From Pseudomonadota bacterium (lineage in GTDB: Bacteria; Pseudomonadota; Gammaproteobacteria; Burkholderiales; Burkholderiaceae_C): a stretch of 64,000 bases of DNA. Positions 259 to 14,973 of the stretch are shown one piece after another (the first letter of the stretch is position 1; the number at the start of each line of letters is the position of its first letter). The translations under genes were made by a program, and so were the position numbers. Below the pieces are notes generated by a model that saw only the letters and a program-made list of their open reading frames with translations, was not told where the DNA came from and did no database searches. The stretch spans positions 1-64,000 of the forward strand of contig JAZKHY010000031.1 of the NCBI GenBank assembly GCA_040385105.1, in the 5' to 3' direction.

Positions 259-289
259 CAAAAAAAAGCCGACCCACGGAGGGTCGGCT
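259..289 (-). terminator. Rho-independent terminator downstream of rtcB
   Basis: Minus-strand reading gives hairpin GCCGACCC-tccgt-GGGTCGGC followed by TTTTTTTTGG, immediately after the RtcB stop. Confidence 0.75.
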
Positions 290-304
290 TCAATACCGGC
301 TTGT

Positions 305-1543
305 TCAACCTTTCACACACACCACCTGCTTGAGCGTGTGGACCACGTCCACCAGGTCGCGCTGCGCGTTCATCACCGCGTCAATGTCCTTGTACGCGGC
401 GGGCGTTTCGTCGATGACGTCCTTGTCCTTGCGGCACTCGACGCCTTCGGTGGCAGCCCTGTGGTCCGCCCGCGTGAAGTGGCGCTTGGCTTCGCCGCGG
501 CTCATCACGCGGCCGGCGCCGTGCGAGCAGCTGTCAAAGCTTTCCGCATTCCCCTTGCCGCGCACGATGAAGCTGCGCGCGCCCATGCTGCCGGGGATGA
601 TCCCGAGCTGCCCGGTTTTCGCGCTCACCGCGCCCTTGCGGGTGACGTAGACGTCCTCGCCGAAGTGATGCTCCTTCTGCACATAGTTGTGGTGGCAGTT
701 CACCGCCTCGATATGGCTCTGGAAGCTCTTGTGGATCACCGTCTTCGCGGCTTCGATCACACGCTTCATCATCACCTCGCGGTTGATCGCCGCGAACTTC
801 TGTGCCCAGCCCACCGCGCGGACGTAGTCGCCGAAGTAGCGGCTGCCTTCCTCGAAGTAGGCCAGGTCGCGGTCCGGCAGGTTGGCCTGGTGGCGCATCG
901 CATCCTGCTTGGCCAGCTCGATGAACATCGTGCCGATGAAGTTGCCCACGCCACGCGAACCCGAGTGCAGCATGAACCAGACAAAGCCCGCTTCGTCCAG
1001 GCAGACCTCGATGAAGTGGTTGCCCGTGCCCAGCGTGCCCAGGTGCTGGATGTGATTGGTCTTCGCGATCTTGGGGTAGTCGCGGCACAGTTCGGTGAAC
1101 TCCGGCTCGAGTTGCGCCCAGGCAGTGTTGACCGAGCCCGGCAGCTTGTGCCACGCGCCCGGGTCGCGCGAGCCCGGCGAGCGGCCGTGCGGCACGGCGC
1201 GCTCGATGGCCGAGCGCAGCGGCGCCAGGTTGTCCGGCAGGTCTTCGGCCTTGAGCGTGGTCTTGCAGGCCATCATGCCGCAGCCGATGTCCACGCCCAC
1301 TGCCGCAGGAATGATCGCCCTGAGCGTGGGAATGACCGAACCGACGGTTGCGCCGATGCCGAAGTGCACGTCCGGCATGACGGCGATGTGCGGGTACACG
1401 ACGGGCAGGCGCGCCGCATTGGTCACCTGGCGCCTGGCCCCGTCATCGACGGGGACGCCGCGCGTCCACATCTTCACCGGCACGCCGCCGGGGGTGGCTT
1501 CCTCGATGAAGCCGGATTCGATTTCTTCAGTCATGGTGTCCAT
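305..1543 (-). CDS. rtcB: RNA-splicing ligase RtcB (3'-phosphate/5'-hydroxyl RNA ligase)
   Basis: 412 aa ORF with RtcB hallmarks ([29 protein letters not shown]); no rtcA or rtcR in the window. Confidence 0.93.
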
Positions 1544-1600
1544 GATTGTTCTCCAAAAAAGAAGGGTACGCCCCTCGTGGGGACGTACCCTTGAAATGGC

Positions 1601-2737
1601 TCAACGGATCTTCACCAACCCGTTGAGCACCTGGTCCAGACCTCCAAACACGGAGATCTTGTCGATGCGCTCGGCCACGCGCTCCAGCGTCTCCAGCTCC
1701 TTCAGGCGCAGGGCGATGGGGTTGTCCTCCATCACCCTGGCCGTGTTGAGCAGCGAGCGGGTCGCTGCCGTTTCCTCGCGGCGGCGGATCACGTTGGCTT
1801 CAGCCGACTTGCCGGCTTCGACCACTTTCGCGAGGATGGTCTTCATCTCGCCGGGTAGCACGATATCCTTCACGCCCACACCGTCCAGCTCCAGGCCCCA
1901 GGCCGCAAGCCGGCTGCTTGCGCACGCGGTCACGACCTCGTCGATCACCGACTTGTTCTCCAGCAGCTCGTCCAGCGTGCGGGTACCCACCGCCGCGCGC
2001 AGGCCCAGCTGCAGCTCGCGGTACAGGTGCTCCGCGGGTTTCTGCAGCAGGGTGAAGGCCTTCAGCACGTCGGTGTAGCGCCAGGTCGCGGCCAGGTTCA
2101 GCCTCAGGCTGACCTTGTCGCGGGTCAGGATTTCCTGGCCCGTGACTTCCACGGCCTGCAAACGCAGGTCCACCAGCTCGACCGCCACGTTGCGGCTGAA
2201 CTTCCAGAACGCGTACGAGCCGGGCTCCAGCAGACGCGACACCTTGCCGTCCACCGCCAGCACGCCGGTCGCGTGCTCGGGAACCTGAATCTGCAGCACG
2301 CCGGCCAGCCCGGTCACGCCGCGCTGGCGCAGCTGGGTCTGCATCAGGCGCTGCGCCATCGCGGCAGGGAGCTCGGCGGACGCAGCCAGGTCGATCACCT
2401 CGACCTTCACGTCCACCAGGCCCTTCCAGTACAGGCGGCGGGTGCCGGGCGCCAGCACTTCCACCAGCACGCCGTTCTCGCTGCGCAGGCCGGCCTGGGT
2501 CTCGCCCAGCTCGACGCGCAGGAATTCAGCGGCCACCACCTCGGGCTCCATGGCCATCAGGTAGTCGGCCAGGCCGTGCATGAAGGCGGGCTGCTCCAGC
2601 GCGAAGGTCTCCACGCGGAGCTTGTCCGTCATGGAGAACAGCTTGTGTTCGCCGGGCGGCAGGATGCGATCGAAATCGCCGTTGCGCAGCAGGATGCCGC
2701 GTTCGTTCTTCTTCACAGTGACACGCTTGTATTCCAT
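1601..2737 (-). CDS. SPFH/band-7 (slipin family) protein, first gene of an operon with rtcB
   Basis: ORF 1601..2848. The internal start MEYKRVTVKK at 2735-2737 is preceded by a GGAGAA RBS. Coiled-coil rich C-terminal half. 57 nt gap to rtcB on the same strand. Confidence 0.75.
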   Translation of the reverse strand: MEYKRVTVKKNERGILLRNGDFDRILPPGEHKLFSMTDKLRVETFALEQPAFMHGLADYLMAMEPEVVAAEFLRVELGETQAGLRSENGVLVEVLAPGTRRLYWKGLVDVKVEVIDLAASAELPAAMAQRLMQTQLRQRGVTGLAGVLQIQVPEHATGVLAVDGKVSRLLEPGSYAFWKFSRNVAVELVDLRLQAVEVTGQEILTRDKVSLRLNLAATWRYTDVLKAFTLLQKPAEHLYRELQLGLRAAVGTRTLDELLENKSVIDEVVTACASSRLAAWGLELDGVGVKDIVLPGEMKTILAKVVEAGKSAEANVIRRREETAATRSLLNTARVMEDNPIALRLKELETLERVAERIDKISVFGGLDQVLNGLVKIR

Positions 2738-3018
2738 GGTGTTCTCCTTGTGGGTTGCGTGTTTCAAAAATAGGGCGCCGCGGGTTGCGGCCATGCCGGC
2801 GGACGCTGAAGGCCAGGGGCCGGGCTCCACGGCGCGCCTTGGCGGCAAGGTGCCGCTTCAAGCTTGACGTGAGCGCGGACCCGGCGCATCCGGCGCGCGA
2901 GCCGGCATCGCCGGCAGGCTTGGGGCTCGCCCTTCATGGGCGCCGCGCAAGGCGGCGCTTCCTTCAGGTTTGCCCCGCGCCTGCGCGCGGCGCTTGGTCT
3001 TTCGACCGTTTGCGATTT

Positions 3019-3087
3019 GGAAACGGGAGTCGAACCCGTGACAGGTCTTTTATGCAAAGACTGCTCTACCACTGAGCTATCCATTTC
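3019..3087 (-). ncRNA. Degenerate tRNA-like element 1 (tRNA-Met-like body with an aberrant anticodon loop; possible pseudo-tRNA or tRNA mimic)
   Basis: Minus-strand sequence GAAATGGATAGCTCAGTGGTAGAGCA-GTCTT-TGCATAA-AAGAC-CTGTC-ACGGGTTCGACTCCCGT-TTCC. D-arm and T-arm are canonical. The anticodon loop carries CAT but has G at position 33. The 5' and 3' ends cannot form a standard 7-bp acceptor stem together with the T-stem. No CCA. Confidence 0.4.
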
Positions 3088-3090
3088 TAA

Positions 3091-3147
3091 TGGTGGGCGG
3101 CCCGGGAGTCGAACCCGGCTCGTCGCGGAGGTATCCCCACGCCGCCC
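3091..3147 (-). ncRNA. 57-nt armless tRNA-like minihelix element 2 (perfect acceptor stem, T-arm, discriminator A, encoded CCA; no D or anticodon arm)
   Basis: Minus strand reads GGGCGGC-GTGGGGATACCTCCGCGACGAG-CCGGGTTCGACTCCCGG-GCCGCCC-A-CCA. The acceptor stem pairs perfectly over 7 bp and the T-arm is canonical. It lies 3 nt upstream of element 1 in the transcription direction. Confidence 0.45.
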
Positions 3148-3296
3148 TGGCATCCACCGCTTCCCGGCAGCGCGGCATGCAACACGTCCACGGACCGAGG
3201 CCCGGACGGATGCACCGGCGGGGCGGGCGTGAGCCCGAACCCCAGCCTGTCAGCGCTTGGCCGTTTGGCGGAAGATTTCTGTGCGGCTGAACCTGT

Positions 3297-3860
3297 TCAG
3301 TTCAGCCGCGATCCTTTGGGCAGGCGCGAAGCCAGCCACTCATGCACGTCGGCCCGGATGTTCCGGCCTTCCAGCAGGAAGTCCTCGAAGCGGCTGGGCA
3401 CATACGGCAGGTACGCCAGTGCCATGCCCGCTTCTTCGGGCGTGCGGTCGGCCTTGCGGCCATTGCACAGCGCGCACGCCGCGACCAGGTTCATCCAGCT
3501 CCACGCGCCGCCGCGCGACAGCGGGAAGATGTGCTCGCACTGCAGGTCGCGCTCGGCAATCACCTGCGCGCAGTACGCGCAGGTGAACCGGTCGCGGCGC
3601 AGCAGTTTGCGCTTGCTGAAGCCTGGCGTGACGTCGAACAGGTTGTGCCTGGCCGCGCCGTTGAGTGCAATGATGGGGTGCACCGGCAGCAGCGACTGCC
3701 TATTGCTCGAGACGTTCCAGCCGCCGCGCAGCACGGCCAGCGGACTGGCGCCGTCTTCCCACGCGACCGAACCGGTCGCGTAGTGCAAGGCCGCCTGCTC
3801 CAGGCTGATCCAGGCCTGCGGCGTGCCCTGGATATCCAGCTGAAGTACATGCGCTTGCAT
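3297..3860 (-). CDS. HNH endonuclease (McrA-like, about 187 aa) embedded between tRNA genes
   Basis: Motifs CAYCAQ...CEHIFPLSRGG...NLVAACALCN. RBS GGAGAA; the start lies 26 nt downstream of the 3' end of tRNA-Lys. Confidence 0.85.
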   Translation of the reverse strand: MQAHVLQLDIQGTPQAWISLEQAALHYATGSVAWEDGASPLAVLRGGWNVSSNRQSLLPVHPIIALNGAARHNLFDVTPGFSKRKLLRRDRFTCAYCAQVIAERDLQCEHIFPLSRGGAWSWMNLVAACALCNGRKADRTPEEAGMALAYLPYVPSRFEDFLLEGRNIRADVHEWLASRLPKGSRLN

Positions 3861-3886
3861 GGTGTTCTCCTTTGTTTTGATGTTGT

Positions 3887-3963
3887 TGGTGTGGGCTCAG
3901 GGATTCGAACCCTGTACCCCCTGGTTAAAAGCCAGGTGCTCTGGCCGAATGAGCTAAGCCCGC
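3887..3963 (-). tRNA. tRNA-Lys (anticodon TTT)
   Basis: GCGGGCT-TA-GCTC-ATTCGGCCA-GAGC-A-CCTGG-CTTTTAA-CCAGG-GGGTA-CAGGGTTCGAATCCCTG-AGCCCAC-A-CCA. One C2·A71 acceptor mismatch. Confidence 0.75.
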
Positions 3964-4173
3964 ATGAAACTCACCACTCGCCGACTTCGCGCACGCGCTG
4001 GTCCAGATCGAGTCGATCCAGATCAATGCGCCTGCGCGCGCCCTGGCGGTGGACACGGGTACCCACGCGTGCGATACCGCGAACGAGAGCCTGCACCACG
4101 CGGTTGCGCGGCTTGGCTGCTGGCACTGCAAACATTTGCTTGCGCATGATGGCTCCTTTGAAAGTGTTGAAAA

Positions 4174-4249
4174 TGGCGCCCCGTGAGGGAATCGAACCCT
4201 CGGCTTCCTCCTGGACAGGGAGGCACTCTGGCCGCTGAGTTAACGGAAC
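4174..4249 (-). tRNA. tRNA-Asp (anticodon GTC)
   Basis: Cloverleaf with anticodon loop CTGTCCA and T-arm GAGGGTTCGATTCCCTC. Acceptor GTTCCGT/ACGGGGC has two G·U wobbles. Discriminator G, encoded CCA. Confidence 0.75.
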
Positions 4250-4258
4250 GGAAAATGC

Positions 4259-4337
4259 TGGTTGCGCAGGCCGGATTCGAACCGGCGATCTCAGGCGTAT
4301 GAAACCTGCGGGGACAACCAGACTCCCCTACGGCGCT
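4259..4337 (-). tRNA. tRNA-Met (anticodon CAT); possibly initiator-like, or an Ile2/lysidine tRNA
   Basis: Anticodon loop TTCATAC. The 3' end GGCCTGCGCAACCA resembles the fMet 3' end. Unpaired A1·A72, one C6·U67 mismatch, 11-nt D-loop. Confidence 0.6.
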
Positions 4338-4342
4338 ATTTC

Positions 4343-4420
4343 TGGCATCGTGTGCGGGATTCGAACCCGCGATCTCCTGATTGAAAGTCAGGTGTCCTTG
4401 GCCATCTAGACGAACACGAC
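4343..4420 (-). tRNA. tRNA-Glu (anticodon TTC)
   Basis: GTCGTGT-TC-GTC-TAGATGGCCAA-GGAC-A-CCTGA-CTTTCAA-TCAGG-AGATC-GCGGGTTCGAATCCCGC-ACACGAT-G-CCA. Confidence 0.85.
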
Positions 4421-4426
4421 AAAAGC

Positions 4427-4503
4427 TGGTGCCCCAGGGGAGACTCGAACTCCCAGAATCCTGCTTCTGAGGCAGGCATGTCTGCCGGTTCCATCACCGG
4501 GGC
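4427..4503 (-). tRNA. Non-canonical class-I tRNA with anticodon CAG (Leu anticodon, but no long variable arm)
   Basis: GCCCCGG-TG-ATG-GAACCGGCAGA-CAT-G-CCTGC-CTCAGAA-GCAGG-ATTCT-GGGAGTTCGAGTCTCCC-CTGGGGC-A-CCA. 3-bp D-stem, 5-nt variable region, discriminator A73. Confidence 0.55.
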
Positions 4504-4768
4504 AAAAAATCCATTTCGGCTGTGTCCATACGCGAGCCGCAGGCGCGGGGCCTGTGTGGGTCGCTCGCTGCACATGGGGAGCTACCCCGTGCACATCCCG
4601 CCATGCCCTTCCCGAGGCAGCATGCAGGCGGTGCCGTATAGGCACACCCGAAATGGCAGGACGCCTGCGGCCAGTACCGCGGCTTGTCCTGCTGCAATTT
4701 GTTAACGATCAAAACACCGTTCCCGGTGGCGCAGCGCGATCACTGCAATGGGTGCGCCTTCAGGCGGA

Positions 4769-4804
4769 CAAAGAAAAAGGCCCGGTTCCTCAGGAATCCG
4801 GGCC
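4769..4804 (-). terminator. Intrinsic terminator oriented for minus-strand transcription (orphan; no annotated minus-strand gene upstream)
   Basis: Hairpin GGCCCGG-N12-CCGGGCC (4779-4804), followed on the minus strand by TTTTTCTTTG. Confidence 0.5.
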
Positions 4805-5075
4805 TCTTGTGGAAAGAGATGAAGGGGTGTGGGCGCCTACGCGCTACCCCTGCCCGGATAAGTCGGATCCTCATAACCAGCCAGCAGCTGGAGCGCCGGG
4901 AGGCGCGTGGACGGATGCGACATGAATCCCTGATTGCCCGTCGTGGCGACAGGACGCAGCCAGCCACAACCGTCGATAAACGGCCGTTTGCTGGTTGATC
5001 TGATGGTCCTGGTTGTCACGATGGCTTCCTGTCTGTTGACTTGCGTCGGTTGATAACGTGTGCCTCTTTCGAGGC

Positions 5076-5115
5076 GTTGACATGAACTGTAAAGAAACTT
5101 TACTGCAACGTCAAC
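5076..5115. promoter_or_regulatory. Imperfect inverted repeat (GTTGAC...TAAAG-AAA-CTTTA...GTCAAC) in the XRE-regulator promoter region; candidate operator
   Basis: Arms GTTGAC/GTCAAC and TAAAG/CTTTA, 45 nt upstream of the XRE ORF start. Confidence 0.35.
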
Positions 5116-5160: not shown

Positions 5161-5523
5161 ATGAACGTTTCCATCACCACGGTCCGAAGGCAGAACCTGC
5201 TGGTTCTCTACCAGGAGTTCGTTCAACAGGCGGTGGCCAAAGGTGGGACGCCGCGCGGGCTCGACCAGGACTTTGCCGCGCACCTGGAGATATCACCCAG
5301 CATGCTCAGCCAGATCAAGTCGGCGCGGCCGATCGGCGACAAGCTGGCGAGGCAGATAGAGACCCATTGCAACAAGGCGGCGGGCTGGCTGGACCAGGAA
5401 GGGCTGCCTTCAGAGCGTGGGCCTGATGCCGCTGAAGAACGCTTCATCGCGCTGGCCCGCGCGGCGTGGCGGGGCGCCAACACCAGGCGGAAACGGGAGT
5501 TGACCACGGCACTGCGGGCTTGA
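5161..5523 (+). CDS. XRE/Cro-like helix-turn-helix transcriptional regulator
   Basis: 120 aa with an HTH-like segment (ISPSMLSQIKSARPIGDKLARQIE). Confidence 0.55.
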   Translation: MNVSITTVRRQNLLVLYQEFVQQAVAKGGTPRGLDQDFAAHLEISPSMLSQIKSARPIGDKLARQIETHCNKAAGWLDQEGLPSERGPDAAEERFIALARAAWRGANTRRKRELTTALRA

Positions 5524-5546: not shown

Positions 5547-6266
5547 TCATTCGCCGTCTTGCATGAGCGTGTTCCAGCGCGCATGTCCCAGCCCGTTGCG
5601 CAGGGCCACCGCGCCTTTGGGGCTGAACTGCAGCGCGCGTGAGCCGTTACGGCGTACCAGCCAGCCGCTGTCCAGGCATTGGCTGCAGATCAGTGCGCCC
5701 AGGCGGCCCGCGACATGATGGCGGCGCTCGCTCCAGTCCAGGCAGGGGCGGCAGTGCGGGCGCTTGCCTCCGGCGCCTGACAGCGCGGCGCTATCCACAC
5801 CCAGGGCCTTCAGCACGGCGCCGGCGCGGTCTGTCAAATGGCCTGCCTCGCCATCAAATGCAATGGCGCCGTGGTCCAGCAGGTGCTGGGTAATGGCCAC
5901 ACCCAGCCGCCCGGCAATGTGGTCGTAGCAGGTGCGCGCCATGCGCATGGCCGCGTCGCGCGGGCCGGTCACGGTGCGCTGCACCGATGCCTGTTGCGCG
6001 GCCAGTTGGGTAATGCCTTCCAGCACACGTGCCACATCGGATGACGCGAGCCGGTGATAGCGGTGGCGGCCCTGGCGCTCCATGTGCAGCAGGCCGGCCT
6101 CTATCAGCATCGCCAGGTGGCGGCTGGCCGTGGCCGCGCTGATATTGCCGGCGGCAGCCAGCTCATTGGCCGTCAGCGCGCGGCCGTCCATCAGCGCGAG
6201 CAGCATGGCGGTGCGCGCCGGCTCGCCGACAAGGGACGCGATGTGGGCAATCTGGTTGGTGTTCAT
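5547..6266 (-). CDS. ArsR-family HTH transcriptional regulator with a C-terminal extension
   Basis: ORF 5547..6404; probable start MNTNQIAHIASLVGEPARTAMLLALMDG. ArsR-type HTH (ANELAAAGNISAATASRHLAMLIEAGLL). Confidence 0.7.
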   Translation of the reverse strand: MNTNQIAHIASLVGEPARTAMLLALMDGRALTANELAAAGNISAATASRHLAMLIEAGLLHMERQGRHRYHRLASSDVARVLEGITQLAAQQASVQRTVTGPRDAAMRMARTCYDHIAGRLGVAITQHLLDHGAIAFDGEAGHLTDRAGAVLKALGVDSAALSGAGGKRPHCRPCLDWSERRHHVAGRLGALICSQCLDSGWLVRRNGSRALQFSPKGAVALRNGLGHARWNTLMQDGE

Positions 6267-6435
6267 GGCGATGACGGTACAGCCGGTGGCGGGGCAAATG
6301 CTTCGTTCCGCAGCAAAGCATTCTGGCACTCCATCTGCAAGACCGCGTTGAGGCAGCGGGGTTTCGCGTACGGTACAGGACCAGGAGCTAGAATATCCAT
6401 TCAATTATCTATTCACATATCTATTCAAAGCTGCG

Positions 6436-7779
6436 ATGCGTCCTGACCTGGATACCCTGCGTTTACGCCTGGCCGGCGGGCCCCAGCCCGCGCGGGCGCT
6501 GACGGATGCGCTCGGGCTCAGCCAACCCACGCTGTCGCGGCGGCTGGCCGGCCTGGGCAGTGCGGTGGTGCGCATCGGGGCAGCGCGATCCATTCAGTAC
6601 GCGTTGCGCGATACGCTGCGGGGGCTGCCCGATATCGCGGTTTACCGCGTGGACGCCTCCGGCCAGCTGAGCCGGTTGGGCCTGCTGGTTCCGGTGCGGC
6701 CCGACGGCTTCGTGATGCACACCAGCGCGGGCGACACCCTCTACAGTCCCGGCCTGCCCTGGTGGCTGCTGGACATGCGGCCTCAGGGCTACCTGGGACG
6801 GGCCTATGTGGCGCGCCACGGCGCGGCGCTGGGCTTACCGGCGCGCCTGGGTGACTGGTCCGACACTGACGCCCTGCGCGCATTGCTGGTCCACGGGCAC
6901 GATCCCGTGGGCAACCTGGTGCTGGGCGATGGGGCGCGCGACCAGTTCATTGCCACCCCCGTGGCTGAACCAGTGGCTCCCGGTGACAAGCCCGCCACTT
7001 ACATGCGCCTGGCCCGCGAGGCCGCGCAAGGCGAGGCGCCCGGCTCCTCCGCTGGTGGCGAGCAACCCAAATTCACCGCTTGGTCCGTCACGGCCGATGG
7101 CCCGCGCCACGTGCTCGTGAAGTTCAGTGAGGCCGAACCCGGTCCCGTGCCACAGCGTTGGCGCGACTTGCTGCTGGCCGAGCACATCGCACTGCAGACG
7201 CTGGCCGAAGGCGGCGTGCCCGCCGCCCGCACCGCCTTGCTGGACGCAGGTGGCCAGCGCTTTCTGGAAGTAGTGCGATTTGACCGTACGGGGCCGCTTG
7301 GCCGCCGCGGCATCGTGTCGCTGGCAGCCATGGATGCCGAGTTCGTCGGCGCAGGCCCCGTGCCCTGGCCCGTGGTGGTGCAGCGCCTGGCAGACGCCGG
7401 CCACGTGCAGGCCGAGGCGGTGCAGGGCGCCGCGCTGCTGTGGGCTTTTGGCGCGCTGATCGGCAACACCGACATGCATGCGGGCAACCTGTCGTTTGTG
7501 ACGGAGCAGGGCCGCCCCTGGGGGCTGGCGCCGGCTTACGACATGTCATCCATGGCGTTCGCGCCACGCTCAGGCGGCAGCCTGCCCGATGCATTGGGCG
7601 CGGCCAGCTTGCACCCCGCCATCCCTCACGACATCTGGCGGCAGGCCGCCGCGCTGGCCGGTGGCTTCCTGGTACGGGCTCGGGACGAGCGCGGCTTCAG
7701 CCGGCGCTTTGCGTCATGCCTGGCCGCGTTGGCGCAGCACCAGCAGGCCGCTCGCGAGGGGATTGCGAGGCTTGGCTAG
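6436..7779 (+). CDS. HipA-like serine/threonine kinase toxin homolog with an N-terminal HTH (YjjJ/HipH-like)
   Basis: 447 aa. N-terminal HTH (LTDALGLSQPTLSRRLAGLG) and a HipA C-terminal kinase core (GEQPKFT ... IGNTDMHAGNLSF). Confidence 0.75.
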   Translation: MRPDLDTLRLRLAGGPQPARALTDALGLSQPTLSRRLAGLGSAVVRIGAARSIQYALRDTLRGLPDIAVYRVDASGQLSRLGLLVPVRPDGFVMHTSAGDTLYSPGLPWWLLDMRPQGYLGRAYVARHGAALGLPARLGDWSDTDALRALLVHGHDPVGNLVLGDGARDQFIATPVAEPVAPGDKPATYMRLAREAAQGEAPGSSAGGEQPKFTAWSVTADGPRHVLVKFSEAEPGPVPQRWRDLLLAEHIALQTLAEGGVPAARTALLDAGGQRFLEVVRFDRTGPLGRRGIVSLAAMDAEFVGAGPVPWPVVVQRLADAGHVQAEAVQGAALLWAFGALIGNTDMHAGNLSFVTEQGRPWGLAPAYDMSSMAFAPRSGGSLPDALGAASLHPAIPHDIWRQAAALAGGFLVRARDERGFSRRFASCLAALAQHQQAAREGIARLG

Positions 7780-7790
7780 CTGAGGTGGCT

Positions 7791-8168
7791 TCACCACTGC
7801 CCCGTCTCCACCCGTATCGCCACTTCACAGTCGTCAAAGATCTCCAGCTTGGCGATCTTCACCCGTACCCCCAGCACGCCCGGCAATTGCATCAGCCTGT
7901 GCGCCAGCTTGCCGATCAGGCTCTCCAGCAGGTTGACGTGCTCTGCCGTGCATTCGTCAATGATGATCTGCCGCACCTTGCGGTAGTCCAGCACATGGGT
8001 GATGTCGTCGTCGCGCGGCAGCAGGGGTTGCGGTCCGCGGTTGAGTTCGGCGTCCACCTGGATGGGCTGGGGCTTGCCGATCTCGTGGGCCAGGATGCCG
8101 AGGTTGGCGTCAAAGCGCAGGCCGGTCAGCGTGAGGATCTGGTCGCCTTGGGTGGGGGCAGCGGTCAT
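7791..8168 (-). CDS. folB: Dihydroneopterin aldolase FolB
   Basis: 125 aa with FolB-like sequence (LTLTGLRFDANLGILAHE...). Confidence 0.8.
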   Translation of the reverse strand: MTAAPTQGDQILTLTGLRFDANLGILAHEIGKPQPIQVDAELNRGPQPLLPRDDDITHVLDYRKVRQIIIDECTAEHVNLLESLIGKLAHRLMQLPGVLGVRVKIAKLEIFDDCEVAIRVETGQW

Positions 8169-8968: not shown

Positions 8969-10078
8969 GTGATGACGACAACGGCTAGTTTAACGACGCA
9001 GCTCCAGAGCCTGATTGCGCGCGAAATCGCCGCCGCCGGTGGCTGGATGCCATTTGACCGCTTCATGGCCCTGGCCCTTTACACGCCGGGCCTCGGCTAC
9101 TACGCCAACGACTTGCGCAAGTTCGGCACTATGCCCTCGTCGGGCAGCGACTTTGTGACTGCGCCTGAAATGACGCCGCTGTTTGGCCAGACCCTGGCCG
9201 TACAGGTGGGTGAGGCGCTGGCTGCGACGCAGACGGATGAAGTCTGGGAGTTCGGGGCGGGCTCCGGCGCGCTGGCGCTGCAGCTGCTTGATGCGCTGGG
9301 CAGTACGGTGCGGCAGTACACCATCGTGGACCTGTCGGGCACCTTGCGCGAGCGCCAGCAGGCCACGCTGGCAGGGTATGCCGGCAAGGTGCGCTGGCTT
9401 GGCGAGCTGCCCGGTGTCATGCGGGGCGTCATCGTCGGCAACGAGGTGCTCGATGCCATGCCGGTCAAGCTGCTGGCGCGCGTCGCGGGCCAATGGCATG
9501 AACGAGGCGTGGCGCTGGACGGTGCGGCAACGGCGGGCGACCGGCTGGCCTGGGCCGACCGTGCGACGACCCTGCGCCCGCCGCTTGAACCTGAAGGCGC
9601 GCATGACTACCTGACTGAAATCCACCCCCAGGCCGAAGCCTTCATTCGCACGCTGGCCGACAGGCTGGAGCGCGGCGCGGCGCTCTTCCCGGACTACGGG
9701 TTTCCCGAGGCCGAGTACTACCACCCGCAGCGGCACATGGGCACGCTGATGTGCCACCGCGGGCACCTGGCGGACGGCAACCCGCTGGCGGATGTGGGCC
9801 TGAAGGACATCACCGCGCACGTCAACTTCACCGGCATTGCGCTGGCTGCCCAGGAGGCTGGTCTGGAGGTCGCGGGCTACACAAGCCAGGCGCGCTTTCT
9901 CATCAACTGCGGCCTGGTGCAGCGGCTGGAGGGCGCGCCGCCCGCCGTGCTTGCCCCCGCGCAGCGGCTGGTCAACGAGCATGAGATGGGCGAACTGTTC
10001 AAGGTGCTGGCCCTGACCCGCAACGCCTCCGGGGCATTGACGGGCTTCAGCCATGGCGACCGCACACACACCCTATGA
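8969..10078 (+). CDS. Class I SAM-dependent methyltransferase, MidA/NDUFAF7 (DUF185) family
   Basis: 369 aa with EFGAGSGALALQLLD SAM-binding motif and DUF185-like architecture. Confidence 0.7.
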   Translation: MMTTTASLTTQLQSLIAREIAAAGGWMPFDRFMALALYTPGLGYYANDLRKFGTMPSSGSDFVTAPEMTPLFGQTLAVQVGEALAATQTDEVWEFGAGSGALALQLLDALGSTVRQYTIVDLSGTLRERQQATLAGYAGKVRWLGELPGVMRGVIVGNEVLDAMPVKLLARVAGQWHERGVALDGAATAGDRLAWADRATTLRPPLEPEGAHDYLTEIHPQAEAFIRTLADRLERGAALFPDYGFPEAEYYHPQRHMGTLMCHRGHLADGNPLADVGLKDITAHVNFTGIALAAQEAGLEVAGYTSQARFLINCGLVQRLEGAPPAVLAPAQRLVNEHEMGELFKVLALTRNASGALTGFSHGDRTHTL

Positions 10079-10085
10079 TGTCCCG

Positions 10086-10280
10086 ATGATTCGCTGGTTC
10101 ATTGTCATCTTCCTGGCCCTGATGTTCATCAGCTGGTTCACGCCGCTGCTGCAGAAGCTCGGCTTTGGCAAGCTGCCGGGCGACCTGCGCTTCAGGCTGT
10201 TCGGCCGTGAGTGGTTCATTCCGCTGACCACCACCATCCTGCTGAGCTTCATCGCCAGCATCATCGCGCAGCTGGTCTAG
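10086..10280 (+). CDS. Small membrane protein (DUF2905-like)
   Basis: MIRWFIVIFLALMFISWFTPLLQKLGFGKLPGD...; two predicted TM helices. Confidence 0.5.
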   Translation: MIRWFIVIFLALMFISWFTPLLQKLGFGKLPGDLRFRLFGREWFIPLTTTILLSFIASIIAQLV

Positions 10281-10290
10281 GGCCTGGCGG

Positions 10291-11217
10291 ATGAAAGCCT
10301 GTGTGGACATCGGCGGTACCAAGGTGGCGGTCAGCCTTTCCACCGGGGAGGGCATGGAACTCCAGGCGCGCGTGACGGAGCCCACCGCCAAGGCCGGCAG
10401 CAACGATGCGGTGGCGCAGCAGATACTGCGCATGATCGGGCAGTCCTGCGCACAGGCCGGCATTCCCGAGGCGGCTATCAGTGCGGTAGGCGTTTCGTCC
10501 TGCGGGCCCTTCGTCATGAACGCCGGCATGGTGGAGCTGGCCGCACCCAACATCTGCGGCGGCATGGCAGGCCCCGGGCGCGGCCTGCCCAACACCTGGC
10601 AGACCGCGCTGCTCGAAGCACCGCTTCGCGCGCGCCACAGCCATGTGCGGGTGGAGAACGACTGCGTCGCCGCGCTCGTGGCCGAGCGCCGCTGGGGCGC
10701 GCTGCAGGGCCTGGACCATTGCGCCTATGTGACCTGGAGCACCGGTATCGGCATGGGGGTCTGCGTGGACGGGCATGTGCTGCGCGGCAAAAACGGCAAT
10801 GCAGGCCACGGCGGCCACATGTTCGTGAGCGACGACGCCAGCGGCGCGCTGTGTGGCTGCGGCAATGTCGGCGATGTGGAGGCGCTGGTGGCGGGCAATG
10901 CCCTGGCACGGCGCTTCGGCAGCGACGCGGCGGCGCTGATGGCCGCCGCCGATGCGGGGGATGCAGAGGCCGGCGCGGTTGTCGATGAGCTGTGCCGCGT
11001 CCTGGGCCGTGCGCTGTACAACCTTGTTGTCACGCTGGACCTGCAGCGGGTGAGCCTGGGCGGCAGCGTGTTCTGGCACCACCGCGGCAGGCTGTTGCCA
11101 CGCTTGCAGGCACAGCTGGACGGCAGGCTTGCCGCGCTGACCACAGGCGTGGCGCTGGTGCCGGCCGGGCTGGGCATGCAGGTGGGCGACTATGCGGCAC
11201 TTGCACTGGTGGCCTGA
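10291..11217 (+). CDS. ROK-family sugar kinase/regulator-like protein
   Basis: DIGGTK N-terminus and CGCGNVGDVE zinc motif. Confidence 0.75.
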   Translation: MKACVDIGGTKVAVSLSTGEGMELQARVTEPTAKAGSNDAVAQQILRMIGQSCAQAGIPEAAISAVGVSSCGPFVMNAGMVELAAPNICGGMAGPGRGLPNTWQTALLEAPLRARHSHVRVENDCVAALVAERRWGALQGLDHCAYVTWSTGIGMGVCVDGHVLRGKNGNAGHGGHMFVSDDASGALCGCGNVGDVEALVAGNALARRFGSDAAALMAAADAGDAEAGAVVDELCRVLGRALYNLVVTLDLQRVSLGGSVFWHHRGRLLPRLQAQLDGRLAALTTGVALVPAGLGMQVGDYAALALVA

Positions 11218-11736: not shown

Positions 11737-13143
<1,407 letters not shown>

Positions 13144-13147
<4 letters not shown>

Positions 13148-14973
13148 ATGACGGTATCCCAGGGAGCGGACAGGCGCATCGCGGCATTGATGATGCCGAC
13201 CATGGAATAGGTCTGCGGGAAGTTGCCCCACATCTCGCCGGTCACGGGGTGAGTGTCTTCCGACAGCAGGCCCAGGTGGTTGCGGGCCGCCAGCATGGTC
13301 TCGAAGATGGCGCGCGCTTCATCCTTGCGGCCGATGCGGGCCAGGGCGTCGATGCGCCAGAAGGTGCAGATGTTGAAGGCGGTCTCGGGCTTGCCGAAGT
13401 CGTCGGGCGCTTCATAGCGGCGCATGTAGGGGCCGTCGCACAGATGTTTCTCCAGCGCATCCACCGTGGCGACGAAGCGCGGGTCCTTCGGGTCGATGAA
13501 GTTCACCTCGGCCATCAGCAGCACGCTCGCATCCAGGTCGCGCCCGCCGAAGCTCTCGGCGAAGGCCTGCCGTTCCTCGCTCCAGGACTCGGCGAGGATG
13601 CGCTCGCGCATGCGGTGCGCATGGGCCAGCCAGTAGTCCGCGCGCTGAGGCAGCTTGAGTGCGATGGCGATCTTGCCCAGGCGGTCGCAGGCGGCCCAGC
13701 TCATCAGGGCTGACGAGGTGTGGATGCGCGCACGCGTGCGCAGCTCCCACATGCCGGCATCGGGCTGGCCGAAAACGGCGACCGCCTGTTCGCCCACAGT
13801 TTCAAGCCGCGCGAACTCGGCATGCCCTGCGCGGTGCAGCAGCCGCTGGTCATGAAAGGCCTGGGCCGCGCCCAGGACGACGTTGCCGTACACATCGTGC
13901 TGGAAGTGCTCCTGCGCCTGGTTGCCCACGCGCACCGGGCCCATGCCGCGGTAGCCCGGCAGACCTTGCGCAAAGCCTTCCGGCAGTTCGCGCTCCAGGC
14001 CGATGCCGTACAGCGGCTGGATGTGCCCGCCGCGCGCCTGCACCACCACATCGGCCATCCAGCGCAGGTAGTCTTCCATGGTGCCGACTTCCGACAGGCT
14101 GTTGAGCGCCCGCACCACAAAGAACGCGTCGCGCAGCCAGCAGTAGCGGTAGTCCCAGTTGCGCTGGCTGCCCGGGGCTTCGGGGATGCTGGTGGTCATG
14201 GCAGCGACGATGGCGCCCGTGTCCTCGAACAGCGAGAGCTTGAGCGTGATGGCCGCGCGGATCACCGCCTCCTGCCACTGCAGCGGCAGCGCCAGGCGCT
14301 GGCTCCAGCCGCGCCAGTAGGCCAGCGTCTCCTGCTCGAAGTGCCGCGCCGTGTCGGCCATGCCTTCCTGCAGGCTCTCGTCGGGCCCGAGCAGGAAGTT
14401 CTGCTCGCGGGTGAGCACAAAGGGCTGGCGCGCCAGCAGGTGCGAGATGGATGCGTCGGTGTTCAGCCGCAGCGTCAGTGCGTCGCCGACATAGCGGATG
14501 TGGTTGCTGCCGCGCGTGATGCCGGGCTCGGCCCGGCCCCAGTCAAAGCGCAGGTTCACCGACACGCGGATGCGCGGCGCACCCGACAGCGGCCGCACGC
14601 GCCGCACCAGCGTCATCGGGTGGAAGTAGCGGCCGCGCTGCCAGAAGCGCGGCGCGAAGTCGGTGATCTCTATGCCCTGGCCGCGCTCGTCGAACAGCTG
14701 GGTGCGCAGCACCGCCGTGTTGTGGTCGTACCACTGCTTCGAGCTGGCAAAGTCCTCGATTTCAATGGCGAAGGCGCTGGCATCCTCGCGCGGGTCCAGC
14801 AGGGCATTGAACACCGGGTCGCCGTCAAAGCGTGGCAGGCAGCACCAGACGATGCGGCCGCGCTCGTCCACCAGCGCGCTGAAGGCACAGTTGCCAATGA
14901 CGCCCAGCTTGAGCGAGGCCTCCGCCGGGGCGCCGAAACCGGGATGGCGGGAGGCTGTGGCTGCCGCGCTCAT
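13144..14973 (-). CDS. Glycoside hydrolase family 15 protein (glucoamylase/trehalase-like), between otsB and otsA
   Basis: 609 aa GH15-like. Overlaps otsB and otsA at stop/start codons. Confidence 0.8.

Follow-up and report, generated by a model that had tools for sequence, protein, structure and literature searches.

The window considered here is a stretch of 64,000 nucleotides (nt) of contig JAZKHY010000031.1 (assembly GCA_040385105.1, Pseudomonadota, Burkholderiaceae_C), and all coordinates refer to it unless a related locus is named. Read on the minus strand from 4503 to 305, it carries a unit of five transfer RNA (tRNA) genes, an open reading frame (ORF) of 58 amino acids (aa), an HNH nuclease gene, two tRNA-like RNAs, a gene for an SPFH protein and rtcB. 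The tRNAs in the locus were called with ARAGORN and Rfam and the protein domains with Pfam; the features of the unit, in the direction of reading, are listed below.

4427-4503, minus strand: tRNA-Leu(CAG) (ARAGORN/Rfam), 77 nt, aberrant, without the long variable arm
4343-4420, minus strand: tRNA-Glu(UUC) (ARAGORN/Rfam), 96% identical to the array copy of the closest relative (locus L084)
4259-4337, minus strand: tRNA-Met(CAU) (ARAGORN/Rfam, 46 bits), with an A1xA72 mismatch and two non-standard acceptor pairs
4174-4249, minus strand: tRNA-Asp(GUC) (ARAGORN/Rfam), with an unusual C at position 37
3971-4147, minus strand: Arg-rich ORF of 58 aa with its own ribosome-binding site, a gene call in the source contig
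3887-3963, minus strand: tRNA-Lys(UUU) (ARAGORN/Rfam)
3297-3860, minus strand: HNH nuclease gene, 187 aa (Pfam HNH), with an N-terminal PLMP-like domain and an IscB/Cas9-type HNH
2738-3296, minus strand: conserved non-coding spacer between HNH and SPFH, about 560 nt, mean column identity 57% over seven loci
3091-3147, minus strand: mini-tRNA with a 7-bp acceptor stem, one hairpin, a T-arm and a 3' ACCA; mascRNA-like in Rfam, 29 bits
3018-3083, minus strand: tRNA-like RNA, the b7a-tRNA equivalent; Rfam tRNA match of 35.9 bits at 3020-3082
1601-2737, minus strand: SPFH/Band-7 gene, 378 aa (Pfam Band_7, E 2e-26)
1562-1592, minus strand: 13-bp hairpin with a U-tract between the SPFH gene and rtcB (terminator scan)
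305-1543, minus strand: rtcB, RNA ligase (Pfam RtcB, E 1.6e-127)
265-291, minus strand: intrinsic terminator closing the unit (terminator scan)

The tRNA genes encode their CCA ends, score 46-64 bits in Rfam and are tightly packed, with spacers of 5-9 nt among the four upstream genes. An earlier note on this DNA had described much of this layout correctly, including the shared minus strand, the 26 nt between tRNA-Lys and the start of the HNH gene, the 57 nt between the slipin (SPFH) gene and rtcB and the presence of "tRNA mimics". Its array of four tRNAs (Lys, Asp, Met and Glu) stands as far as it goes, but the fifth, tRNA-Leu(CAG), was missed, and Asp and Lys are separated by a 210-nt gap that contains the conserved 58-aa ORF. 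Likewise, the unit does end in a terminator as proposed, but the terminator-like hairpin at 1592-1562 ahead of rtcB had been overlooked. The gene beyond the terminator, assigned in that note to ttcA, encodes in the source contig a PP-loop (PF01171) protein of 310 aa, which is consistent with a ttcA-like function; searches of PDB and NCBIfam with the 65-aa fragment inside the window gave no match.

Two of the array tRNAs and the small ORF need further comment. The Leu(CAG) genes of other arrays are 83-88 nt long, at most 67% identical to the window copy, and all have the long variable arm; as the window copy lacks this arm, it may be defective, or possibly repurposed. For tRNA-Met(CAU), a choice between initiator, elongator and Ile2 cannot be assigned. 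The 58-aa ORF matched nothing in family searches, Pfam included, and its C-terminal motif DLxQRVRxxGEW is kept in five related loci (L006, L007, L010, L017 and L084).

Conservation and mobility of the unit

A genome scan with an alignment of 10 HNH sequences matched about 586 genomes, and loci were taken from 80 of these, with neighbouring genes read from pre-annotated contigs. The set compared here comprises 24 Burkholderiales loci with an HNH protein at 68-87% identity (L001-L020, L023, L082, L084 and L091). In all of them except L018, a same-strand array of 1-27 tRNAs ends approximately 30-140 nt before the HNH start. Downstream sequence sufficed in 23 loci, of which 12 have RtcB and two more end right after Rsr or SPFH.

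The attachment of RtcB takes three formats. The window shares the combination of tRNA-like RNA, SPFH and RtcB with L004, L012, L016, L019 and L084, and the sequence of L011 ends after its SPFH gene. A second format, with RtcR, Rsr (Ro60), YrlA-like Y RNAs, RtcB, RlaP and RtcA, is found in L001 and L003, and L002 ends within Rsr; RtcB alone is attached in L009, L015, L018 and L023. That RtcB is attached to this HNH-array unit in three independent ways speaks for a functional connection and against a mere accident of insertion, and the arrangement recurs in many genomes, which is more than chance. As such, the neighbourhood comparison bears out the proposal that the parts form one co-conserved unit.

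Arrays in more distant loci or in loci without RtcB carry other RNA or translation genes, either inside the array or adjoining it. The array of Variovorax plasmid pRA8-2 has an Rnl-type RNA ligase (L091:4668-5729), that of the Methylibium plasmid an AlkB and an HD protein (L082:6197-7549), and that of Variovorax pSRS16-1 a protein with an RF-1 domain, PrfH/ArfB-like (L092:10826-11344).

The HNH-array unit is carried by a conjugative Methylibium megaplasmid and by Variovorax plasmids, and it occupies differing chromosomal contexts in the window, L001, L084 and L085. Mobility, which the earlier note had left unproven, is supported by these plasmid copies and varied contexts. No integrase was found in the annotated neighbourhoods, and the only flanking direct repeats (att sites) were tRNA T-arm repeats.

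The array tRNAs themselves look accessory when their sequences are compared, with the proviso that the source is a fragmented metagenome-assembled genome (MAG). The size and content of the array vary strongly between close relatives (1-27 tRNAs), and identity between the window tRNAs and the corresponding tRNAs elsewhere is 57-87%, apart from one at 96%. By comparison, housekeeping tRNA-Lys(CUU) is 100% conserved in three Variovorax species and only 67-71% identical to the Lys(CUU) of the arrays. Variovorax plasmid arrays have also been reported to be redundant with chromosomal tRNAs (PMC7313664).

Control region, structured RNAs and proteins

Upstream of the array lies a control region, outside the span flagged in the earlier note, for which an alignment of 13 spacers revealed five conserved elements. 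These and the neighbouring leader elements are as follows.

5161-5523, plus strand (divergent): regulator gene, 120 aa, with a helix-turn-helix (HTH) of CI/Cro type; profile matches to phage CI and Cro, weak Pfam HTH_3 match
5086-5114, minus strand: sigma-70-type promoter TTGACG-17-TACAGT (promoter scan)
5103-5089, minus strand: palindrome GTAAAGTTTCTTTAC overlapping the promoter, a putative operator (alignment)
4837-5019, minus strand: leader ORF of 60 codons with a GTG start and an AGGA Shine-Dalgarno sequence, open in 15 loci
4770-4806, minus strand: leader intrinsic terminator GGCCCGGAUUCC...GGAACCGGGCC with a U-tract, about 30 nt past the leader stop codon
4728-4715, minus strand: boxB-like hairpin (control-region alignment)
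4710-4699, minus strand: boxA-like element GAUCGUUAACAA, diverged from the rrn boxA GCUCUUUAACAA
4505-4662, minus strand: R1 structured RNA, a 16-bp closing helix and three hairpins forming a four-way junction that abuts the first tRNA

The family profile of the 120-aa regulator matches the phage CI repressor 7nkv (E 3e-4) as well as Cro, and in 18 loci a homologue is encoded in divergent orientation, 500-850 nt ahead of the first tRNA. Invariant columns of the promoter and palindrome (TTGAC, GTAAA and TTTAC) were seen across 13 loci, and the HTH protein is a putative repressor of the module that would act at the palindrome.

Between promoter and array, the leader ORF is open in 15 loci with lengths of 34-68 aa, conserved ends and in-frame indels. 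Close to its end, the sequence AUCCGGG (4859-4853) provides His-Pro-Gly codons, and the last codons also contribute the 5' arm of a hairpin around the stop codon, with four covarying pairs. The stem of the leader terminator is invariant across loci. When the terminator 3' arm is left out of the folding, AUCCGGG pairs with the 5' arm CCCGGAU in nearly all loci, and this antiterminator helix is 84% paired on the alignment, with five of its nine pairs invariant and two showing compensatory changes. Leader ORF, terminator and alternative helix together have the anatomy of a putative ribosome-dependent attenuator. The boxA consensus GCUCUUUAACAA is the rrn antitermination element, and eight related loci each have a single copy of its exact core GCTCTTTAACAA, in every case within the leader and before the first tRNA.

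Directly ahead of the array, R1 is an unannotated RNA of approximately 135-160 nt whose RNAalifold consensus has 37 pairs, 11 of them with compensatory changes, and a fold z-score of -2.2. Its covariance model matches 21 loci, two plasmids included, directly before or after the first tRNA (e.g., L001:8587-8742, L003:7587-7738, L082:4285-4426 and L091:2762-2921), and a weak match was obtained in one locus with an HNH protein at 55% identity. The model found no R1 in Anabaena or in loci with a stand-alone HNH gene, and no Rfam family matched. The 5' strand of R1 starts with the CCA of the preceding tRNA or hairpin; the RNA may be a processing or insulating element or may bind a protein. The identification of R1 as a Y RNA was rejected, there being no YrlA match and the true YrlA-like RNAs of L001 being separate. 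The Rhizobacter MAG locus L005 has two copies of R1 (4173-4325 and 7847-8000) with a boxA core (7717-7728) before the second, suggesting a duplicated or composite array.

Downstream of the array, the spacer between HNH and SPFH contains many invariant blocks and holds the two tRNA-like units and further conserved hairpins. The mini-tRNA is kept in seven loci and shows covariation in its T-arm. The other tRNA-like RNA has D, anticodon and T arms, all with covariation over seven loci (five anticodon-stem pairs are compensatory), an acceptor stem of only 4 bp and no conserved anticodon. The SPFH gene, which adjoins RtcB in seven loci, encodes a protein with no membrane segment obvious by eye; it is probably cytoplasmic and a putative scaffold. 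A stable hairpin follows the SPFH stop codon in all loci of this type (e.g., L016, L019 and L084), often with a U-tract, and its sequence is not conserved. Conservation of position but not of sequence suggests positional selection, for example in setting the SPFH:RtcB ratio, and in the window the hairpin is a putative partial terminator or mRNA stabiliser. In the closest relative, the Ramlibacter MAG locus L084, a gene for a ClpP-like, SDH-type serine protease (12318-13328) stands between SPFH and RtcB, an insertion that recalls the SPFH/NfeD protease pairing.

Close relatives of the HNH protein number over 1,200, with approximately 80% identity across Burkholderiales genera. Its zinc-binding cysteines and catalytic His and Asn are invariant, and ratios of non-synonymous to synonymous substitution (dN/dS) of 0.16-0.45 indicate purifying selection. 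The structure model has two domains and a mean predicted local distance difference test score (pLDDT) of 94.9. The HNH domain is closest to IscB and Cas9d, and the best structural matches of the N-terminal domain are IsrB and IscB. At the sequence level, assignment of the latter to PLMP was non-significant in Pfam, in a PDB profile search and in hhalign against one IscB, and the N-terminal region gave a weak KOW-like match to Spt5 (E 0.03). Since PLMP lacks support from sequence, the protein is named IshB-like rather than IshB, and on the modelled fold it looks IshB-like in architecture. The translation-initiation regions of the HNH and SPFH genes are nearly identical (AAGGAGAACACCATG, 17 of 18 nt; 3855-3872 and 2732-2749), and the same motif stands ahead of SPFH in the other loci.

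More distant HNH homologues occur in other settings. In approximately 60 Comamonadaceae species (L021-L081), the gene of a sister clade at about 50% identity stands alone on the chromosome, with no tRNA array or RtcB nearby; in L055, the single such locus inspected closely, the gene (10001-10543) is divergent from ribF-ileS. Relatives at 46-55% identity again follow tRNA clusters, on one unclassified contig and on phage contigs. In Ralstonia phage RsoM2USA and Gordonia phage GodonK, no tRNA gene is annotated within 5 kb of the HNH homologue, which in GodonK is near the terminase gene, and linkage to tRNAs is thus not universal in the wider family. A scan of viral contigs gave eight HNH loci, and the three close ones start exactly at the HNH gene, which is probably an artefact of provirus boundaries.

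Relation to known systems and interpretation

The closest known counterparts are the L-arrays: long, supernumerary, horizontally transferred tRNA arrays of Cyanobacteria, Actinobacteria and all classes of Proteobacteria (Santamaria-Gomez et al. 2021, PMC8421152). Cyanobacterial arrays have beside them a conserved HNH gene that is co-induced with the array by translation inhibitors, the array improves survival, and rtcB occurs in array neighbourhoods and is co-regulated (PMC8421152). Furthermore, a trcR mutant of Anabaena derepresses the HNH gene all8564, rtcB (all3526), a slipin (alr0740) and a second HNH gene (alr0856), and TrcR also represses the trn array (2023, PMC10272220). The window HNH protein is 33% identical to all8564 over aa 1-155 (BLASTP E 1e-23), a match that covers both domains, and all8564 lies on plasmid delta, on the same strand as and directly before 24 tRNAs of the 24-26-tRNA trn operon.

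The window unit thus shares with the trn array of Anabaena sp. PCC 7120 its same-strand, tightly spaced and horizontally spread accessory tRNAs, an adjoining, homologous HNH gene of the same orientation, rtcB and a slipin in the same functional set, and a dedicated repressor at the -10 region, which in the window is putative. It differs in that its array of five tRNAs falls below the "long" of that paper, although direct relatives have up to 27, and in that the HNH gene lies downstream of the array rather than upstream. Moreover, rtcB and the SPFH gene adjoin the array and are co-oriented with it, whereas their Anabaena counterparts are regulon members at scattered sites; the regulator has a CI/Cro-type HTH, whereas TrcR is of ribbon-helix-helix type; and the leader ORF with its terminator, boxA and R1 are absent from the Anabaena locus.

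The second counterpart is the b7a-tRNA/Band-7/RtcB system predicted by Burroughs & Aravind 2016, as quoted in a preprint (bioRxiv 10.1101/312249) according to which the b7a-tRNA had not been validated experimentally as of 2018. As in the quoted description, RtcB in the window adjoins a Band-7 protein and a tRNA-like non-coding RNA, and the cassette is interchangeable with an Rsr/Y-RNA version, as in the sister loci L001 and L003. Measured against that quotation, the window cassette differs in its coupling to a tRNA array and HNH gene, and in an RNA region of about 560 nt with a second, acceptor/T-arm mini-tRNA ending in ACCA.

Similarly, the RtcR-regulated rsr-yrlBA-rtcBA locus of Salmonella pairs RtcB with tRNA-like RNAs, and L001 and L003 carry RtcR, Rsr, YrlA-like RNAs, RtcB, RlaP and RtcA right after the HNH gene. 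The window differs from it in having no Rsr, no homologue of RtcR or RtcA by tblastn in its first 12 kb, and no sigma-54 promoter that stands out ahead of the repair genes, where pattern matches were not above chance. With the trp/his and antibiotic-responsive leader attenuators, the leader shares a short ORF whose 3' part overlaps one strand of an antiterminator, predicted in this case, followed by an intrinsic terminator; it differs in being long, in lacking a run of one regulatory codon and in controlling tRNA genes. Phage tRNA clusters (T5 and others; PMC10264068) resemble the unit in their clustered extra tRNAs, some with non-canonical anticodon loops, and in the HNH genes of tRNA regions, but window-type units are chromosomal or plasmid-borne, putatively repressor-controlled and linked to RNA ligase genes.

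Rather than a new system, the module is a version of the L-array/HNH/RtcB translational-stress toolkit, compact and betaproteobacterial, in fusion with the b7a-tRNA/Band-7/RtcB system. The earlier note had not known it to be described, a view that no longer holds given that L-arrays with HNH and rtcB, the b7a-tRNA system and anti-defence tRNA arrays have all been published, while its theme of tRNA supply and repair agrees with experiments on the homologous cyanobacterial parts, for which repression by TrcR is shared and translation inhibitors act as inducers. Four points were not found described in the papers searched and are possibly new: the arrangement in a single locus, the CI-type regulator together with boxA and a putative attenuator in the leader ORF, R1, and the IshB-like HNH.

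With moderate confidence, the locus is read here as a reduced member of the L-arrays, joined head-to-tail to a b7a-tRNA/Band-7/RtcB repair cassette, that restores the tRNA pool under translational stress. From the observed anatomy, conservation, homologies and RNA structures, we infer the following regulatory and biochemical steps for the window organism. In normal growth, the CI-like repressor would keep the unit off through the palindrome over the -10 box. At the attenuator, a ribosome that reaches the leader stop codon would occupy AUCCGGG, so that the terminator forms and the unit stays off. If translation is slowed by damaged or scarce tRNAs or by ribosome inhibitors, the ribosome would lag, AUCCGGG would pair with the 5' arm of the terminator and transcription would read through, after which boxA could provide processive transcription across the structured array. 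The transcript would yield spare tRNAs, the PLMP-HNH nuclease, two tRNA-like cofactor RNAs, the SPFH scaffold and RtcB, which would reseal RNAs cut to 2',3'-cyclic-phosphate and 5'-OH ends. The net effect would be restoration of the tRNA pool. Co-induction of homologous parts by translation inhibitors and a survival benefit are documented in Anabaena only (PMC8421152, PMC10272220).

The length of the leader and its wealth of different amino acids point to a possible general sensor of translation speed. All 20 amino acids are present in six of 14 leader peptides, and their summed distinct residues (264 against a mean of 244) exceed all 5,000 composition-matched simulations, although the peptides are related and the simulation treats them as independent, so that the statistic is suggestive only. 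A more speculative idea, and a long shot, is that the leader ORF of approximately 60 codons acts as an "all-tRNA" sensor of translation speed that would gate the spare-tRNA operon.

Several points weigh against this reading, the relatedness of the leader peptides among them. The array is short (five tRNAs) and one tRNA is aberrant, and it may be in decay. RtcB is not found nearby in nine of the 23 related loci. The window regulator is unrelated to TrcR, so that regulation cannot be transferred from Anabaena by homology. Three loci mispair beside the antiterminator core and, as the core itself is invariant, covariation support for the helix is thin (two informative pairs). Finally, the hairpin between SPFH and rtcB is terminator-like, so that co-transcription of rtcB is not assured, and no promoter has been mapped for the repair genes.

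The best-surviving alternative, which was the idea of the earlier note, is that the unit is anti-defence or anti-toxin cargo, whose nuclease-insensitive replacement tRNAs and RtcB would protect a plasmid, phage or host against anticodon nucleases (colicins D and E5, contact-dependent inhibition (CDI) tRNases, PrrC, PARIS and retron effectors). It overlaps the preferred reading, differs from it mainly in trigger and beneficiary, and is considered unlikely, though worth keeping in view. The replacement of tRNAs cut by anticodon nucleases with extra tRNAs has been published for phages and proposed for mycobacterial arrays. Phage tRNAs with changed anticodon loops are reported to escape such nucleases, and tRNA arrays have been described as putative anti-defence systems (PMC10264068, PMC11464382, PMC11555353, PMC12803027). 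The presence of the unit on plasmids and of HNH relatives in the tRNA regions of phage contigs fits this idea, as does a survey of the anticodon loops of 249 array tRNAs from 30 loci against 50 comparison tRNAs. At position 37, array tRNA-Asp carries not A but U, C or G, with a pyrimidine in 13 of 17 loci and C in the window, and C33 and A32 occur in 20 and 13 of the 249 array tRNAs, in loops that recur within isoacceptor families, whereas none of the 50 comparison tRNAs departs from the canonical base at position 33 or 37. These deviations are compatible with nuclease evasion and are not evidence of it, and four of the five window tRNAs, all except tRNA-Asp, have ordinary anticodon loops.

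The isoacceptors of the array, which had been taken as a sign of nuclease targeting, make a weak argument, as arrays range from 1 to 27 tRNAs and Lys(UUU) is found in just two loci. The most retained isoacceptors are Arg(ACG) (18 loci), Asp (15), His (14), Glu (13) and Leu(CAG) (11); these are nuclease targets in part, but they also decode the commonest codons of a GC-rich genome, so that composition does not discriminate between the two readings. Moreover, no nuclease or toxin gene is consistently linked to the unit, and chromosomal copies with a repressor and attenuator resemble host-regulated stress genes.

A second alternative sees the locus as what is left of a decaying phage- or plasmid-derived tRNA array, in which the HNH protein is a selfish homing endonuclease and the adjacency of rtcB an outcome of insertion history. 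HNH homing nickases are known within phage tRNA regions, as in phage T5, and the five tRNAs of the window (against up to 27 in relatives), the lost variable arm of tRNA-Leu, an Ideonella locus with just two tRNAs and no leader, and the nine loci without RtcB could all be read as decay. Such a history is doubtful, however, as the HNH gene is under purifying selection, with its catalytic residues, fixed position and strong ribosome-binding site kept, and RtcB is linked in three independent formats. Neither the stand-alone clade in Comamonadaceae, which is not selfish behaviour, nor the co-regulation of the Anabaena HNH homologue with its array would be expected of a homing element.

A further proposal concerns only the HNH protein, namely that it is a domesticated IscB/IsrB relative still partnered with an RNA of the same transcript, whether R1, a tRNA or a tRNA-like RNA. 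IshB proteins are approximately 180-aa PLMP and HNH relatives of IscB and Cas9 (Altae-Tran et al. 2021, as summarised in PMC10734217 and PMC11610941), and the window protein resembles them in its 187 aa, its HNH of IscB/Cas9 type and its IsrB/IscB-like N-terminal fold. It differs in that its gene ends tRNA arrays or, in relatives, stands alone, without an IS200/605 context, TnpA or a recognisable omega-RNA; no transposase was found in the annotated or Pfam-scanned neighbourhoods, and the RNAs upstream of the HNH gene are tRNAs. The proposal is a long shot, and if it held, an RNA-directed DNA or RNA nickase would be coupled to the translation-stress response, or used to copy or spread tRNA arrays.

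An ordinary housekeeping tRNA operon beside unrelated genes, which the good tRNA scores and encoded CCA ends would allow, is very unlikely, as the array tRNAs evolve fast, unlike the conserved housekeeping copies, their content varies among relatives on a unit that is also plasmid-borne, and a putative dedicated repressor, a leader, a terminator and an HNH gene accompany them.

Wider significance and flanking genes

If the preferred reading of a stress-responsive array joined to a repair cassette is true, Burkholderiales own a compact and portable "translation first-aid kit", in which spare tRNAs, an RNA ligase, cofactor RNAs and a scaffold come with a built-in sensor. A single locus of this kind would be a simpler system than that of Anabaena for studying how bacteria sense a failing tRNA pool, with the leader ORF and its attenuator as a concrete and testable sensor candidate. 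It would also offer a second lineage in which to probe the role of the array-linked HNH protein, and the IshB-like protein would connect tRNA biology with a branch of the IscB/Cas9 family that has received little study. In addition, the b7a-tRNA and R1 are now delimited by covariation and coordinates and are ready for laboratory detection.

Beside the regulator gene lie an ArsR-type HTH gene (5547-6404, minus strand) and a HipA_C kinase gene (6436-7779, plus strand), a pair without a counterpart adjoining the module in the other loci. HipA-type kinases target aminoacyl-tRNA synthetases.

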